A stretch of 32,000 nt of DNA from an uncultured bacterium (GCA_963704705.1 OY969931.1:90001-122000), one strand, 5' to 3'. Shown: positions 16,105-22,531, counted from the stretch's first letter. Numbers and translations: made by a program. Notes: a model not told the origin generated them from the sequence alone.

Positions 16105-18759
16105 ATGAAATTAATCATAGATGAAAAAGTTCTGCAAACCTATCCAACGCTAAGTTTTGGCATAGTGCTTGCGAAAAGTGTTAACAATGAAAGAAAAACC
16201 ATTGCATTGGAGCAGATTTTTAATGGAATGAGTGCGCAGGTTAGGAACAAAATGAAGAAATCCGAACTAAACGATATGCCAAGAATCACAAATTGGGAGA
16301 ATATTTATAAAGATATTAGCGGAAAAACCTTCCAGACAAACCTTGAAAAATTATTAAGAGATGTTTTGGCTAATCGCGAAGTCCCTTTTACTGATAATCT
16401 GGCTAAAATTAGGGATTATTTTATGCTTAAATGGAAATTGCCTATTATTTGTTTCAGCTTGAATCACATTTATGGAAATATCGAACTGACTTATGATGGC
16501 AAGGATATAATTTATAAAGATAAAGGCTCTGTTTTAACAAAAAAATGGAATAGCGAACAGTACGAAAGAGGTGATATTAATCGTGAAACCGACAGTGTTG
16601 TGTTTATTATAGAAAATTTGGGGATTTTGGAACCTGAAAAACTTAAAGATGAATTAAATGAATTGGCGTTAATGCTGCAAAAATATTGTTTTGGTTCTGA
16701 TATTGAGGTTGATTTAATTGTTCCGCCGCATAATGAAAAAGATTTGGGAGTTGCCGGGTTAAGTGAATTTACTGGTGTTCAACCTGAACAAACTGAAAAA
16801 CCTGAAGAAGAAGAGGCCCCTCAAAATGTTCCTGAAACCATCGATAAAGAACTTCCTTCAGGTGCTGAAATTCAAAAAATAATTAACGAAACTGAATTTG
16901 CGCCAGCAGAAGAGCCGGTTGAACCTGTTTTGCACCCAAAAGAATCAGTTCAGATTAATGACAATTCCCTGAAATTCAGAATTGGGGAGATGTTTAAAGA
17001 AGCTTTAAATAAATCTTACCCTGAAGTTACAGATGAAATAAAAGTTGAATATCCGCGTGATCCATCACATGGAGATTATGCCTGTAGTATAGCAATGAAA
17101 TTGGCTAAAACGCTTGGTCAGAATCCAATGGAAATAGCTGAAAAAATTACTTCAAATATTTCACCGCTTCAGTTTGTTGGTAATATTGAGGTTGTTCAGC
17201 CGGGATTTATAAATATAAGACTTTCATCGGAATTTTTGACTACACAGGTTAATGAAATCGCTCAACAAAAAGACCTCATTCATACAAAAATAGGTGAAAA
17301 TAAAACCGTGGTAATTGATTATTCGTCTCCGAATATTGCAAAGCCTTTAGGCGTTCATCATCTTTTATCAACTGTGATTGGACAGGCAATTTACAATATA
17401 TATAAGGCACTTGGGTATAAAACAATTGGAGTGAATCATCTTGGGGACTGGGGCACGCAATTCGGTAAACTTATTTATGCTTTTAAAACCTGGGGTGATA
17501 AAAAAATAATTGAAAAAGATCCGATTCCTGAACTTTTAAAACTTTATGTTAAATTTCATGATGAAGCTGAAAAATCATCTGAACTTGAAGATAAAGCTCG
17601 TGAAGAATTTAAAAAACTTGAGCAGGGAGATGAAGAAAACACTAAATTATGGGAATGGTTTAAAGATTTGAGCATGGCTGATTTAAAAGCCACTTATGAA
17701 AAGCTTGGAATTGCATTTGACGAATATATCGGCGAAAGTTTTTTTAATGACAAAATGGCTTCTGTTATTGAAGAAGGCAAAGAAAAAGGAGTCTTTGTAG
17801 AGGGCGAGGGAGGGGCTTTGATTGTTAAATTCAAAGATGAAACCATGCCACCTTATATGGTGCAAAAATCAGACGGAGCAACTCTTTATTCATTAAGAGA
17901 TCTCGCAACTATTAAATACAGACTTCAGACCTGGAATCCCGATCAGCTTTTATATGTAGTGGATAGCGCTCAAAGCCTTCATTTTAAGCAGTTATTTGAA
18001 ACCGCAAAAATGCTTGGTTATGATCATGCAAAATTTGAACATATTTCTTTTGGAAGAATGAGCCTGCCTGATAAATCAATGAGTACTCGAAAGGGAAATG
18101 TTGTTTTGCTTGAAGAAGTTCTAAAAGACGGACTTGAAAAAGCACGCGAAATCGTTAAAGAAAAAAGCAAAGATTTGAAGAAAAAAGATCAGGAAAAAGT
18201 AGCTGAAATGGTGGCAATAGGTGCTATTAAATACAATATTTTATCTCAAAACAGAACAACCGATATAGTATTTGATTGGGATAAAATGCTTAGCATCGAA
18301 GGAAACAGCGCTCCATACCTGCAATATAGTTATGCGAGAGCAGAAAGCATATTAAGAAAAAACGCCGAAGAAAAGCCAAAAAAAGAAAAAAAGAAACCAT
18401 TAAAAGATGAAAAGACTGAAAATCAAATAGATTTATTTCAGGCAATTGAAATTGCCGAAGACAAAGCAGTAAACGGTGTAGCACCTTTGGAAAACGAACA
18501 TGAATTGGAAGTTGCGCGACTTTTGCCAAAATACAGTGAGTTATTATTATTTTCAGCTGAAGAATACAAACCTAATTTATTCTCAAATTATTTATACGAA
18601 CTTGCGCATGCATTCAATGGATTTTATAATGCTGTACCGGTTTTACAAACTGAAAATTCGGAGCTTAAAGAAGTTCGTTTAAATTTAACAAGGGCAGTTT
18701 CCAGAAGTTTAAAAGAAGGATTACATATTTTAGGTATTGAAGTTCCTGAAAGAATGTAA
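16105..18759 (+). CDS. argS: Arginine--tRNA ligase with an N-terminal B3/B4 (PheRS-beta-like, COG3382-type) domain fusion
   Basis: 884 aa in one uninterrupted frame. Residues ~288-884 are ArgRS: the Add-1 domain, SSPNIAKPLGVHHLLSTVIGQAIYN (HIGH-region equivalent), SMSTRKGNVV (MSTR motif) and a C-terminal DALR anticodon-binding domain ending in the family-typical terminal Met. Residues 1-~225 follow the stand-alone B3/B4 pattern (MKLIIDEKVL..YP.LSFGIV...PRITNWENIYK...LEKLLRDVLANREVPFTDNLAKIRDYFMLKWKLPIICFSL). An acidic Pro/Glu linker covers ~226-287. Confidence 0.85.
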   Translation: MKLIIDEKVLQTYPTLSFGIVLAKSVNNERKTIALEQIFNGMSAQVRNKMKKSELNDMPRITNWENIYKDISGKTFQTNLEKLLRDVLANREVPFTDNLAKIRDYFMLKWKLPIICFSLNHIYGNIELTYDGKDIIYKDKGSVLTKKWNSEQYERGDINRETDSVVFIIENLGILEPEKLKDELNELALMLQKYCFGSDIEVDLIVPPHNEKDLGVAGLSEFTGVQPEQTEKPEEEEAPQNVPETIDKELPSGAEIQKIINETEFAPAEEPVEPVLHPKESVQINDNSLKFRIGEMFKEALNKSYPEVTDEIKVEYPRDPSHGDYACSIAMKLAKTLGQNPMEIAEKITSNISPLQFVGNIEVVQPGFINIRLSSEFLTTQVNEIAQQKDLIHTKIGENKTVVIDYSSPNIAKPLGVHHLLSTVIGQAIYNIYKALGYKTIGVNHLGDWGTQFGKLIYAFKTWGDKKIIEKDPIPELLKLYVKFHDEAEKSSELEDKAREEFKKLEQGDEENTKLWEWFKDLSMADLKATYEKLGIAFDEYIGESFFNDKMASVIEEGKEKGVFVEGEGGALIVKFKDETMPPYMVQKSDGATLYSLRDLATIKYRLQTWNPDQLLYVVDSAQSLHFKQLFETAKMLGYDHAKFEHISFGRMSLPDKSMSTRKGNVVLLEEVLKDGLEKAREIVKEKSKDLKKKDQEKVAEMVAIGAIKYNILSQNRTTDIVFDWDKMLSIEGNSAPYLQYSYARAESILRKNAEEKPKKEKKKPLKDEKTENQIDLFQAIEIAEDKAVNGVAPLENEHELEVARLLPKYSELLLFSAEEYKPNLFSNYLYELAHAFNGFYNAVPVLQTENSELKEVRLNLTRAVSRSLKEGLHILGIEVPERM

Positions 18760-18841: not shown

Positions 18842-18929
18842 GGAGAGATGGCAGAGTGGTCGAATGCGGCGGTCTTGAAAACCGTTAGGCCTTAGGGTCT
18901 CCTGGGTTCGAATCCCAGTCTCTCCGCCA
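18842..18929 (+). tRNA. tRNA-Ser (anticodon UGA), class II with long variable arm, CCA encoded
   Basis: Acceptor stem GGAGAGA/TCTCTCC. Anticodon arm GCGGT-CTTGAAA-ACCGT gives anticodon TGA. 16-nt variable arm. T arm CTGGG-TTCGAAT-CCCAG. Discriminator G followed by CCA. Confidence 0.93.
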
Positions 18930-18964
18930 TTTTAGAATATGCTAGTCGGATAGCAGGTGAATAA

Positions 18965-19222
18965 TTATTTTTTCTTAGCAATTAGATTATAAACAAATGC
19001 GAGTATTGCTCCACCTATTGCACCGTCGATAAATCCCAGAAGGCCTCCTATAATTCCGCCTAAAAGACCGGGTTCGAATCCGATATAAAGTGAGCTGAGT
19101 GTTTGAACGATTCCCGCACCATAGCCTCCAACGGAAATCCATCCTAAGAACAGCATGTATAAGCCCCATGAGACTCCTGCAGCAATAGCAAAAGCCATTA
19201 CATTTAATTTTTGCATAGTCAT
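18965..19222 (-). CDS. Small glycine-zipper membrane protein, paralog B (85 aa)
   Basis: Sequence MTMQKLNVMAFAIAAGVSWGLYMLFLGWISVGGYG...IGFEPGLLGGIIGGLLGFIDGAIGGAILAFVYNLIAKKK, i.e. hydrophobic helices with a GxxxG-type zipper. About 80% identical by eye to the 21709..21960 product. Same strand as the P-type ATPase and immediately downstream of it. Confidence 0.75.
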   Translation of the reverse strand: MTMQKLNVMAFAIAAGVSWGLYMLFLGWISVGGYGAGIVQTLSSLYIGFEPGLLGGIIGGLLGFIDGAIGGAILAFVYNLIAKKK

Positions 19223-19271
19223 GATTTTAAGAAATATAATATAGTTATAATAAATATTTTCATCACATTAT

Positions 19272-21671
19272 TCAATCATTATTCGTTTGACCTTTTAATT
19301 TATCAATAATTCGGTAAGACAAAACTTTCACCTGATCATTAATAAGCCACCAGACAATTGCATAGAGCCACATCAATCCTGCCAGCTTCCAGCCTATTGG
19401 TTCCATGAATATACCGTATACTGCAATTAACGTACCTATTGCTCTTGATCCAAATGCAGGAATAAAAAACTTTAATGAAGGAAAAGGTTTATGCCAAAAA
19501 TGGTATCTGCCTGTTCGTGTTAAATATAGAGTTGAATGGCCTGCAACATCCAGTTTTATAAATAATAAAGTTTGTATTAAAGCCAATGGAACAGCATAAG
19601 CCTGTAATATAAAAAATATTAGAAATGATGCAACAAGCCCGGCAGTCCCCAAAATAATTGCAATTATAATGGTATCTTTTAAATGCCAGCGTATAGGTTT
19701 TGGAGAAACCGGCGCATTGTCATAAGCAATTGCCATTACAGGTATGTCATTTAATAAAGCAAGTGCGATAATCATTACAGCCGTAATAGGATAAAAATTA
19801 AACACTATAATTGAAACTGACATGAATAATACAATACGTATTGTTTCAGCTATACGAAACGTTGCGTAGGCTTCCATTCGTCCAAAAATAACACGCGCAC
19901 TATTTATAGCCTGATGAATGACTGACAAACCAGGTTTTAATAATATTAAGTCAGCGGAAGATCTGGCTGCATCAGTTGCACCGGAAACAGCTATACCAAT
20001 ATTTGCTTCTTTTAATGCAGGAGCATCGTTAACACCGTCTCCTGTCATTGCTACAATATGTTTATGTTTTTGCAACGATTTAACGATGTCATATTTATCT
20101 TCCGGCAGAACTTCCGAAAAAGCATCGGTATCCATAATCTCCTTATAAGGTTCGGATTTACCTTTTTTCTTCTTCCCAAGTGCTGACGATGCAACTAAAA
20201 CCTTTTTCCCAAGTTTTAATATCCCACTGATTTGTTTCGCTATTGCAACATTGTCACCGGTCAGCATTTTTACCTTTATACCTAATTTTTTTATAAATGA
20301 AATAACTCTTGCAGAATCATCACGAGGCGCATCATATAAAGCAATAACACCAACGAGTTTATATTTTTTTTCTGTTTTTTCTTTAATGCAAATTGCTAAA
20401 GTTCTAAAACCTTTATTCGCATAGTTATCCACATCATTTGTAAGTTTATCGGAAAATGAGTTTTTAGGTATTAATTTTGAAACTACCTGTGAAGCGCCTT
20501 TAATAATTTCAAATGTTTTGCCACCTTTACTAACCATAGCCCTTGTAAATTTTTTGTCAGGATCAAAGGGTGTAAAATTTTCTACCTTATATAACTTTAA
20601 GTTTTTGGAAAGCTTTTTTTTGTCGGAATATTCATATATTGGAATTTCTATGGGATCATTATTTTCTTTTTTGCTTGCAAGCATTGCAAAAGTAAATAAT
20701 GATTTTTCATCATATTTATTGTATGTGAAATATGATGAAACAGTCATTTTATTCTTAGTTAGTGTGCCTGTTTTATCGGAACATAATATATCAACGCCGG
20801 CTAATTCTTCTATTGATTGAAGATCCGCAACAACAGCATGTTTTTTTGCTAAATTATAAGCACCAACAGCTAATGTAACTGATAACACAGCAGGAAGGGC
20901 AACAGGAATTGAGGCAATCGCTAAAATAAGAGCAAATCTAAATGTTTCAATAACAGAATCTCCTCGTAATAAAGATATCGCCACCAATATTGTAATGATA
21001 AACAGCGTAGATAATATTAAAAAATGCCCAATATTAATAATTGCTTTTTGAAAATGGCTTACATTATTTTTTTCAGCTTTGGCTACTAAAGCTACATTTT
21101 TCCCGAAGAAGGTATTTTTACCGGTTTTAGTTATTTCAGCGAGCATTTCGCCAACTTTAACTACAATATTTCCATAAATATTTTCACCTACTTTTTTTTC
21201 TACAGGTAATGACTCTCCTGTAATGGATGATTGATCAACTAAAAGATATTTACCTTGGCGTAAGATAGCATCCGCAGGAACAACATCTCCGATTTTTAAT
21301 TCAATTATATCACCCGGAACTAAAAATTTTGCTGGTATTGTAGAGAATTTACCATCACGTAAAACCAATGCTTTAGGTGATAACGTAGCCTTTAATGCCT
21401 TTAAAGCTTTATTGGCTTTTTGTTCCTGAAGAAAATCAACAATTATATTAAGGGAAAGTAATACGGAAATAATTATCAGATCATCCCATTTCCCTACAAT
21501 TGTTGAAAATACCATAGCCAACTCAATCATCAATGGTATAGGGCCAATAAATTTTCCTATAAAACGTATAAAAGCAGGAGTTGATTTTTCAGTGATTTCA
21601 TTTAAGCCAAATTGTTTTTGTCTTTCGTTGGCTTCTTTTTCAGTTAATCCATTTTTAAGATCTGTTGGCAT
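19272..21671 (-). CDS. Plasma-membrane proton-efflux-type (type IIIA) P-type ATPase
   Basis: 799 aa. N-terminus GLTEKEANERQKQFGLNEI, phosphorylation motif CSDKTGTLTKNKM, hinge MTGDGVNDAPALKEANIGIAV. The TM6 segment ALALLNDIPVMAIAYDNAPVSPKPIRW parallels plant AHA2 ILNDGTIMTISKDRVKPSP, including the Asp proton-acceptor position. Confidence 0.88.
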   Translation of the reverse strand: MPTDLKNGLTEKEANERQKQFGLNEITEKSTPAFIRFIGKFIGPIPLMIELAMVFSTIVGKWDDLIIISVLLSLNIIVDFLQEQKANKALKALKATLSPKALVLRDGKFSTIPAKFLVPGDIIELKIGDVVPADAILRQGKYLLVDQSSITGESLPVEKKVGENIYGNIVVKVGEMLAEITKTGKNTFFGKNVALVAKAEKNNVSHFQKAIINIGHFLILSTLFIITILVAISLLRGDSVIETFRFALILAIASIPVALPAVLSVTLAVGAYNLAKKHAVVADLQSIEELAGVDILCSDKTGTLTKNKMTVSSYFTYNKYDEKSLFTFAMLASKKENNDPIEIPIYEYSDKKKLSKNLKLYKVENFTPFDPDKKFTRAMVSKGGKTFEIIKGASQVVSKLIPKNSFSDKLTNDVDNYANKGFRTLAICIKEKTEKKYKLVGVIALYDAPRDDSARVISFIKKLGIKVKMLTGDNVAIAKQISGILKLGKKVLVASSALGKKKKGKSEPYKEIMDTDAFSEVLPEDKYDIVKSLQKHKHIVAMTGDGVNDAPALKEANIGIAVSGATDAARSSADLILLKPGLSVIHQAINSARVIFGRMEAYATFRIAETIRIVLFMSVSIIVFNFYPITAVMIIALALLNDIPVMAIAYDNAPVSPKPIRWHLKDTIIIAIILGTAGLVASFLIFFILQAYAVPLALIQTLLFIKLDVAGHSTLYLTRTGRYHFWHKPFPSLKFFIPAFGSRAIGTLIAVYGIFMEPIGWKLAGLMWLYAIVWWLINDQVKVLSYRIIDKLKGQTNND

Positions 21672-21708
21672 ATTTTTAATTAAAATAATAAATTTAATTT
21701 TGCCAAAA

Positions 21709-21960
21709 TTATTTTTCTCTGGTGATCAAATTATAAATAAAAGCGAATATTGCACCACCTATTGCACCGTCGATAAATCCCAAAAGGCCTCCTATGATAC
21801 CGCCTAAAAGACCGGGTTCGAAGCCGATATAGAGCGAACCGAAGGTCTGTACAATCCCCTTACCATAACCTCCAACTGAAATCCATCCCAAAATCAACAT
21901 TGCAAAGCCCCATGTTATTCCTGCAGCAATAGCAAAAGTCATTACATTGAATTTTTTCAT
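21709..21960 (-). CDS. Small glycine-zipper membrane protein, paralog A (83 aa)
   Basis: Sequence MKKFNVMTFAIAAGITWGFAMLILGWISVGGYGKGIVQTFGSLYIGFEPGLLGGIIGGLLGFIDGAIGGAIFAFIYNLITREK. Lies 37 nt upstream of the ATPase start on the same strand. Shares long identical nucleotide runs with paralog B. Confidence 0.75.
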   Translation of the reverse strand: MKKFNVMTFAIAAGITWGFAMLILGWISVGGYGKGIVQTFGSLYIGFEPGLLGGIIGGLLGFIDGAIGGAIFAFIYNLITREK

Positions 21961-22119
21961 AATAATAATTTTAAGAAATATAATATAAATATAATAGCAA
22001 TTCTAGTTGCTTCATTCAATAATATTGCTTCATGCCCTTAACTTCAATTCTTGCAAAACTTCAAGATAAAACAGAATTAGATTCGATATGAATTCGTACA
22101 TTGTACATGATTTTGTGCC

Positions 22120-22144
22120 AGGCTTTATTAAAAGCCTTTTTTTT
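22120..22144 (+). terminator. Strand-specific intrinsic terminator-like hairpin with no annotated upstream gene
   Basis: AGGCTTT-ATTA-AAAGCCT followed by T7-8 on the + strand. The opposite strand has no T tract after the stem. Sits ~50 nt upstream of the SemiSWEET start and is immediately followed by an extended -10-like TGTTATAAT. Confidence 0.5.
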
Positions 22145-22192
22145 GTTATAATAATATGAACATTTTGAACCTAAAATTAAAACAAATACAAA

Positions 22193-22531
22193 ATGCCAAC
22201 TGGATCACAAGTAATACATCATCTTCAGCAACAAAAAAGTTCGCTTGAAGCTGTTATAAAACCAAAAACCAAATTCCAGATAATGCTTGATAAAATGGTT
22301 TATTTAACTGGCGCGGCATCTGTGTTTATGGCAATTCCTCAGGTTATGCAAATATGGGGAACTCAGAGCGCGCAGGGTGTTTCTTTTATTACATGGTTTA
22401 CTTTTTTAATTAATGCGGTGATTTGGTCTGTTTATGGTTTTTATCATAAAGAAAAGCAAATTATTATAATGTATATCGCATATTTTTTTATTGATTTGTT
22501 TATTGTTTCAGGAATTATAATTTATGGATAA
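22193..22531 (+). CDS. SemiSWEET / PQ-loop family small sugar-transporter-like protein
   Basis: 112 aa with 3 predicted TM helices and the PQ motif in TM1 (FMAIPQVMQIWGTQSAQGVSFITWFTFLINAVIWSVYGF). An internal Met at residue 31 would give the more usual ~82 aa. The stop TAA overlaps the next ATG (ATAATGG). Confidence 0.75.
   Translation: MPTGSQVIHHLQQQKSSLEAVIKPKTKFQIMLDKMVYLTGAASVFMAIPQVMQIWGTQSAQGVSFITWFTFLINAVIWSVYGFYHKEKQIIIMYIAYFFIDLFIVSGIIIYG

Follow-up and report, generated by a model that had tools for sequence, protein, structure and literature searches.

Organisation and insertion of the three-gene locus

Three minus-strand genes were analysed in a window of 32,000 nt (G000:C1:90001-122000; OY969931.1 of GCA_963704705.1) taken from the complete 1.37-Mb genome (35.5% GC) of an uncultured bacterium of the Patescibacteria, or Candidate Phyla Radiation (CPR). 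The window is the whole stretch of DNA that was analysed, and positions are counted from its first letter. A gene for a P-type ATPase of the type IIIA (P3A) class (19272-21671, 799 aa) is bracketed by two genes for very small membrane proteins with two transmembrane (TM) helices and glycine zippers, designated here as minis. Along the minus strand the order was mini A (21709-21960, 83 aa), a gap of 37 nt, the ATPase in the same direction, a gap of 49 nt and mini B (18965-19222, 85 aa as listed). This order, both gaps and the three lengths of the open reading frames (ORFs) agreed with an earlier note on this DNA. Comparison with other genomes showed that the linkage between mini genes and pump genes is real, recurrent and non-obligate.

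Minis A and B were identical in 67 of 83 residues (81%, E 7e-38), close to the 80% that had been estimated by eye. At the DNA level, the similarity formed a 300-nt direct repeat with 82% identity and a spacing of 2744 nt, with the B gene and its 5' region in copy 1 (18963-19262) and the A gene and its 5' region in copy 2 (21707-22006). The repeat extends approximately 45 nt upstream of both start codons. Comparison of the coding parts gave a synonymous divergence (dS) of 0.64 and a nonsynonymous divergence (dN) of 0.10, and the dS together with the dN/dS of 0.16 indicated that the duplication is old and that purifying selection acts on both copies. In the DNA alignment the ATG of A faces the second ATG of B (19216), so that mini B probably starts there and is 83 aa long (MQKLNV...).

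The 20-mer TATATTATATTTCTTAAAAT precedes both A (21968-21987, minus strand) and B (19224-19243, minus strand) as exact copies, and these were the only two copies in the whole genome. The earlier note had placed it 1 nt from the start of B and 7 nt from that of A; the identity of the copies was upheld but the spacing was not, since the second ATG of B gives 7 nt in both. The 20-mer before B is probably most of a short 5' untranslated region. A consensus scan identified a promoter-like site, TTGAAT-17-TATTAT, 5' of B (19247-19275, minus strand) and 5' of A (21991-22019, minus strand), with both hexamers kept between the copies, and the -35 hexamer before B overlaps the stop codon of the ATPase gene. 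The earlier note had concluded that the duplication, or gene conversion, includes the expression signal; the repeat does reach upstream of the genes and the promoter-like site is shared. However, the upstream positions -40 to -1 were identical at 32 of 40 sites (80%) versus 58 of 83 third codon positions (70%), and the 20-mer was conserved no better than certain runs within the coding sequence, so the shared leader speaks only weakly for a signal under selection. The 20-mer was initially taken as a strong sign of selected regulation and was downgraded after this third-codon-position comparison. A sequence scan found no terminator-like site between the three minus-strand genes, which may plausibly be transcribed together from A through the pump to B, with a further start inside this unit before B.

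The block has been inserted into this lineage. In two of the three congeners (G001 and G003), the arginyl-tRNA synthetase gene (argS), tRNA-Ser, the SemiSWEET gene and a gene for a 378-aa protein were contiguous without the three genes, and the gap between the synthetase gene and the 378-aa gene was 3772 nt here compared to approximately 700 nt in G001 and 1180 nt in G003. The left edge of the block is the tRNA-Ser gene (anticodon TGA, 18842-18929, plus strand, detected by ARAGORN). The right conserved flank, outside the module, is a SemiSWEET-like gene (22193-22531, plus strand, Pfam MtN3_slv/PQ-loop) which is syntenic with tRNA-Ser in G001 and G003. By comparison of these gaps the insertion, including the three genes and flanking spacers, spans approximately 18930-22192. 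Among 41 relatives, a P3A pump above the cut-off was present in the window genome only, and the window genome carried three minis while the relatives carried one, or two in G008. Presence or absence between conserved flanks beside a tRNA gene is the pattern by which genomic islands are recognised, and it was observed here. Only three ORFs were present in the insert, with no integrase. No second copy of the 3' end of the tRNA was found flanking the insert, the sole tRNA-like repeat being a 12-nt T-arm match within the mini genes. From these sequence comparisons, the best explanation would be a horizontally acquired three-gene cassette that was inserted beside tRNA-Ser in a genome of the Patescibacteria.

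Other features were observed around the insertion. The T-arm 12-mer of tRNA-Ser, GGGTTCGAATCC (18904-18915), recurs exactly in mini B (19070-19081) and with one mismatch in mini A (21814-21825), in a region which encodes a conserved GFEPG loop; it may be a coincidence, or a microhomology bearing on the insertion at the tRNA side. A clean terminator-like hairpin with a T-run (22120-22144, plus strand) was identified in the 232 nt that separate mini A from the SemiSWEET-like gene. No plus-strand gene precedes it there, and it might originally have terminated tRNA-Ser before the insertion moved the two apart. In the third congener, G002, the assembly ends exactly between tRNA-Ser and SemiSWEET (end of G002:C5 and start of G002:C63), and elsewhere this genome had a single mini, with none of its proteins passing the cut-off for a P3A pump. 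Finally, the arginyl-tRNA synthetase (16105-18759, plus strand, 884 aa) has an N-terminal extension of approximately 290 residues without a Pfam match, which precedes the usual Arg_tRNA_synt_N, catalytic and DALR domains and is kept in the congeners (60-75% identity along the whole protein).

The P3A pump and the mini-protein family

The ATPase scored 832.4 bits with TIGR01647, the equivalog model of plasma-membrane proton-efflux P-type ATPases (cut-off 615.5), while the next-best family, PMR1-type Ca, gave 341 bits against its own cut-off of 798. Pfam matches were E1-E2_ATPase, Hydrolase and Cation_ATPase_N. The closest solved structures were AHA2 (5KSD, 516 bits) and fungal PMA1 (510 bits), with Ca-ATPases at 266 bits. 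The phospho-aspartate motif DKTGT (CSDKTGTLTKNKM) and the hinge motif GDGVNDAPAL (MTGDGVNDAPALKEANIGIAV) were present and aligned to AHA2. In the phmmer alignment to 5KSD, the TM5 Arg (R655; 'aetiriv' against 'sitiriv') and the TM6 Asp (D684; 'allndipvm' against 'ailndgtim') of AHA2 were conserved, and these two residues form the AHA2 proton site (PMC10654040). The assignment to the type IIIA proton pumps made in the earlier note was borne out by these scores and residues, and H+ export is predicted. The pump has neither an N- nor a C-terminal regulatory domain, which is typical of prokaryotic P3A pumps, and the transport function of these is described as undetermined in a 2023 review by Palmgren (PMC10654040).

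P3A pumps were identified in five of 401 sampled genomes of the host's phylum. The class had been called sporadic in bacteria, which is correct for this phylum but not overall, as 7984 of 8000 scored candidates were found at E ≤1e-50 and relatives with 50-60% identity occurred in Bacteroidota, Planctomycetota, Myxococcota, Patescibacteria and others. The nearest relatives were titled Patescibacteria/CPR, and in a tree the window pump was basal within a clade of CPR-type pumps (51-60% identity) that had strong support. Upstream of the closest relative (L145, 60% identity), an unrelated two-TM ORF of 80 aa (129-371) was observed at a distance of approximately 110 nt. This ORF and another small one downstream of the pump in L148 were considered as candidate minis and rejected, since neither belongs to the mini family. 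It may be more widely the case that P3A pumps have small membrane ORFs as neighbours.

Minis A and B matched the NCBIfam family NF037947 ('holin_4, bacteriophage holin') with 73.3 and 72.9 bits, barely over its cut-off of 70 bits, and a third mini of the window genome, paralog C, matched with 82.1 bits. No Pfam match was found for A and B at E ≤0.1. Weak matches to DUF5676 (PF18926, 2TM family of unknown function) were found in 8 of 22 relatives (best E 0.0032), and A and B failed the gathering threshold of this family. A profile search gave 3055 clusters at 50% identity, almost all of them stand-alone proteins of 80-110 aa. The conserved features were an MKL N-terminus and the motif GF[IV]DGxIGG with a mostly conserved Asp in TM2; YN at the C-terminus was invariant, and both termini were basic. 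The AlphaFold2 model of mini A was a hairpin with helices at residues 6-30, 34-41 (short) and 51-79 (pLDDT 94.7), and no significant match (all E >1) came from a fold search of the hairpin in the Protein Data Bank. The mini is a member of a large non-phage family of two-helix glycine-zipper membrane proteins of approximately 80 residues (NF037947, distantly similar to DUF5676). A few larger members were observed (P0269, P0274, P0313 and P0334): a fusion of three tandem mini modules with Wzy_C (O-antigen ligase), a triple-repeat protein of 344 aa, a protein with a His-rich N-terminal tail and a fusion with a YgaP-like TM domain.

The earlier note had also foreseen that the family could be a known, unrelated one such as a holin. 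Formally this is the case, as NF037947 is named so, but the label was without support in the phage collections. The minis had no PHROG match, no match in 50,697 phage records of INPHARED (tblastn) or in 2.9 million IMG/VR contigs, and none in the plasmid collection, and the reading as holins was rejected on this basis. In addition, neither an endolysin nor any other phage gene was present in the three-gene insert. Paralog C (G000:564260-564517, 85 aa, 33% identical to A) lies directly after rpmA, the gene of ribosomal protein L27. The order of rpmA, mini C and a gene for a 227-aa protein without a clear domain (G000:C1:563951-565213) is kept across the family and several other families of the order. 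The absence of phage relatives and the housekeeping synteny of paralog C make the name very probably a misnomer; it is borne by proteins annotated by NCBI in metagenome-assembled genomes (MAGs) of Patescibacteria, Woesearchaeota, Nanoarchaeota, Aminicenantia and others. In the mini tree A and B were a sister pair (support 99) that was placed among metagenomic relatives and apart from the rpmA-linked CPR clade. A recent origin of A and B from paralog C, resident in the same genome, was rejected because of this position and the low identity between A and C. A literature search produced nothing relevant on DUF5676, on small partners of bacterial P3A pumps or on holins in Patescibacteria.

Linkage between mini genes and pump genes

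A metagenome scan seeded solely with A/B-like minis (an alignment of five sequences) gave 303 relatives. Neighbourhoods were counted for the best 80 of these relatives (40-57% identity) together with their flanks, which were short on many contigs, and grouping at 80% identity resulted in 42 mini lineages. An adjacent P3A pump was found at 12 of the 80 loci, in five lineages, and all five linked pumps that were scored passed the TIGR01647 cut-off (655-1073 bits). A CopA-type pump adjoined the mini at one further locus and was 1.8 kb off at another. Clustering of the 314 ORFs within 3 kb of the minis, done without prior assumption, showed P-type ATPases as the top family, with 7 of 42 lineages compared to 3 for the runner-up. 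Pump genes were not more than 221 nt from the mini in 13 of 14 cases, and a single one was found beyond 500 nt in 375 kb of flank. The hosts of the linked pairs had a GC content of 28-61%. The linked pumps were 38-50% identical to one another and belonged to at least four separate ATPase clades, and the linked minis were scattered across the mini tree, which was poorly resolved. The adjacency is far beyond chance and recurs in unrelated hosts, which supports the idea of a functional link.

Two arrangements were seen. At L070/71, L072/73 and L122 the mini is followed by the pump in the same direction with gaps of 42-221 nt, the same arrangement as that of A and the pump here. At L082, L084, L086, L087, L091, L094 and L097 the pump is divergent from a mini-TrkH pair. 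A lineage of low GC content (L082, L086, L087 and L091) was observed in which the mini abuts TrkH with a gap of 0, followed by thymidine kinase, with the P3A pump divergent (L086, 2934-4739); such a cluster of proton pump and K+ uptake is reminiscent of the H+/K+ coupling of fungi and plants. None of the 80 metagenomic loci had two minis, so the pump bracketed by two minis is unique to the window genome.

Several observations weigh against a role that is dedicated to the pump. Of the 42 metagenomic mini lineages, 35 showed no P-type pump within the available flank. The neighbours in these lineages varied (DUF488, C1 peptidase, aminotransferase and others), and further contexts of minis included xanthine dehydrogenase/PAP2, ArsR/ArsP, a Woesearchaeote PEP-synthase operon and an archaeal ribosomal-protein region, as well as the rpmA housekeeping synteny of paralog C. 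Where the mini abuts TrkH and is divergent from the pump, the immediate partner may be TrkH. From the side of the pump, 11 P3A loci that were either closest to the window pump or from its phylum were examined, and a mini was found at none of them. Among these, three species-representative genomes with the nearest pumps had no member of the mini family at all, four other CPR genomes with P3A pumps had no mini, and the four closest metagenomic relatives of the pump (58-60% identity) had none in their flanks. In a second phylum the mini family was present in 30 of 301 genomes with an adjacent pump in none of the 30; 27 of these lacked a P3A pump and three carried one on a different contig. Genomes G438 and G439 had A/B-like minis and no P3A pump. 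Finally, no fusion of a mini with an ATPase was found among the 150 best of the 3055 family representatives.

The co-localisation of minis with P-type ATPases in other genomes, on which the earlier note had made its idea depend, gave a mixed result: it was enriched from the side of the mini, with P3A pumps in 5 of 42 mini lineages and P-type ATPases as the top neighbour family, and absent at the 11 pump loci and in the 30 genomes of the second phylum. The suggestion of the earlier note that the minis could be dedicated subunits was partly supported: the recurrent adjacency favours a functional link, but 'dedicated' is too strong, as most genomes have one gene without the other. Separate clades, apart from the CPR clade of the window pump, were formed by the other linked pumps. 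Inheritance of the mini together with the pump from other linked lineages was also considered and was unsupported, as the window pump is basal in a CPR clade whose checked members were without minis.

Possible roles of the mini-proteins

The reading that is favoured, with a confidence slightly short of an even chance, is that the mini would be a facultative small membrane partner or modulator of P-type pumps which arrived with the pump as a cassette and was then duplicated. One branch of the mini family has come repeatedly to adjoin P-type cation pumps. The core of the cassette would be the mini-P3A pump pair, in the order and orientation common to three other lineages. The second, long-diverged mini copy is downstream of the pump, and a promoter-like site and a short 5' leader are retained in front of each copy. 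The hairpin would be inserted in the membrane with both termini in the cytoplasm, as suggested by the basic N- and C-termini. There it could stabilise or tune the pump, by analogy with PMP1/2, FXYD, phospholamban/sarcolipin, KdpF and MgtS, and the two diverged copies might supply dosage or form a hetero-oligomer. That the mini is a specific, directly bound subunit of the pump is rather unlikely on the present comparison. A wider proposal, which is speculative and was given a somewhat lower probability still, is that some NF037947/DUF5676-like hairpins are unrecognised prokaryotic 'regulins' of P-type ATPases. These would bind the membrane domain of P3A pumps lacking the regulatory domain (R-domain) and of some CopA pumps, and would regulate or stabilise these pumps in trans, a task that falls in eukaryotes to terminal domains or to peptides of the PMP1/FXYD/PLN type, with A and B as a heteromeric version.

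Small membrane partners are known for several P-type ATPases, namely PMP1/PMP2 for yeast Pma1, FXYD for Na,K-ATPase, phospholamban/sarcolipin for SERCA, KdpF for KdpFABC and MgtS/MgtR for the P3B pump MgtA. The minis resemble them in being very small hydrophobic proteins encoded with a P-type pump, and the mini gene adjoins the pump gene in several lineages as KdpF lies within the operon of its pump. They differ in that no regulin family of Pfam or NCBIfam was matched, so no sequence kinship was seen, and in that the mini is a two-helix hairpin of 83 aa while the known partners are single helices of 30-70 aa. Unlike that of the known partners, the linkage of the mini is facultative and found in a minority of lineages, and the mini is known here from comparative evidence. 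Accessory subunits of P-type pumps are shown in the review cited above (PMC10654040), in which P3A pumps are treated as single polypeptides; no such small partner has been described for prokaryotic P3A pumps. The window pump shares DKTGT, TGDGVNDAPAL, the TM5 Arg and the TM6 Asp with plant and fungal H+-ATPases (AHA2, 5KSD; Pma1, 7VH5, 1MHS and 7NXF) and differs from them by the missing terminal regulatory domains. With NF037947 and DUF5676 the minis agree in size and two-TM architecture. Their contexts are at odds with the 'holin' label, being chromosomal and either housekeeping or transporter-linked, with no phage association in the collections searched. The mini is also similar to the c-subunit proteolipid of F/V-type ATPases in its length of approximately 80 aa, helical hairpin, glycine-rich helix and membrane-embedded carboxylate (Asp64 in GF[IV]DG). 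However, the fold match was insignificant (1A91, E 4.8) with no sequence homology, and the glycine motif and the Asp of the mini are on the same helix, unlike in the c-subunit, so the likeness is one of analogy only.

A substantial alternative, although with the chances clearly against it, is that the mini is a general small membrane protein, such as a homo-oligomeric leak channel for ions or protons built on glycine zippers, or a factor for membrane stress or packing, which does not touch the pump. Its adjacency to P3A, CopA, TrkH and ArsP would then reflect co-regulation in ion-homeostasis clusters, and the two extra copies would be functionally related cargo that arrived with the pump without binding it. 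Such a protein would agree with the housekeeping paralog after rpmA in genomes without a P3A pump, with the many family members unlinked to a pump, with the diversity of cation and metal transporters among the neighbours (TrkH, CopA and ArsP) and with the fusions to unrelated membrane domains. The mostly conserved TM2 Asp in a GxxxG-rich helix and the invariant C-terminal YN would also fit. For a generic membrane protein, though, it would be unexpected that no other family adjoins it as often as P-type pumps do, in hosts that range from 28 to 61% GC, and the same mini-to-pump orientation with gaps of 37-221 nt in four lineages suggests co-expression that is specific to the pump.

Two further explanations were given lower probabilities. 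The minis could be structural remnants, unrelated in function to the pump, of a tandem duplication of a mini-pump unit with loss of one pump or of Campbell-type recombination between mini copies. A 300-nt direct repeat that brackets one gene, the insertion of the block beside a tRNA gene, the T-arm match (GGGTTCGAATCC) within both mini genes and the absence of the two-mini bracket from the other 80 loci are all as expected from such events. Nevertheless, both copies are intact under purifying selection in spite of their synonymous divergence, the congeners have no resident mini at the site to recombine with, and the independent adjacency of mini and pump elsewhere would be left unexplained, so this origin is considered quite improbable. 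A still far smaller probability, close to negligible, was given to the minis being true holins or holin-like lethal pore formers that remain from the lysis cassette of a prophage or from a toxin-like module. The marginal NF037947 scores and an architecture that is common among holin-like proteins (small size, two TM helices and glycine zippers) speak for it. They are opposed by the lack of relatives among PHROGs, phage records and IMG/VR contigs, by an insert free of phage genes, by the conserved place of the paralog after ribosomal protein L27 and by the selective maintenance of two copies beside a pump.

Overall, prokaryotic P3A pumps are almost unstudied, and a recurrent small membrane neighbour offers a concrete and cheap hypothesis on them. 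If the minis do act on the pump, the theme of a small peptide that regulates a P-type pump would extend to bacterial proton pumps. Separately, the family name 'bacteriophage holin' in MAGs of Patescibacteria, DPANN archaea and others is probably wrong. CPR bacteria have a reduced energy metabolism, and an acquired ATP-driven proton pump with putative helper proteins bears on how these bacteria may energise their membrane or use it to hold their pH constant.

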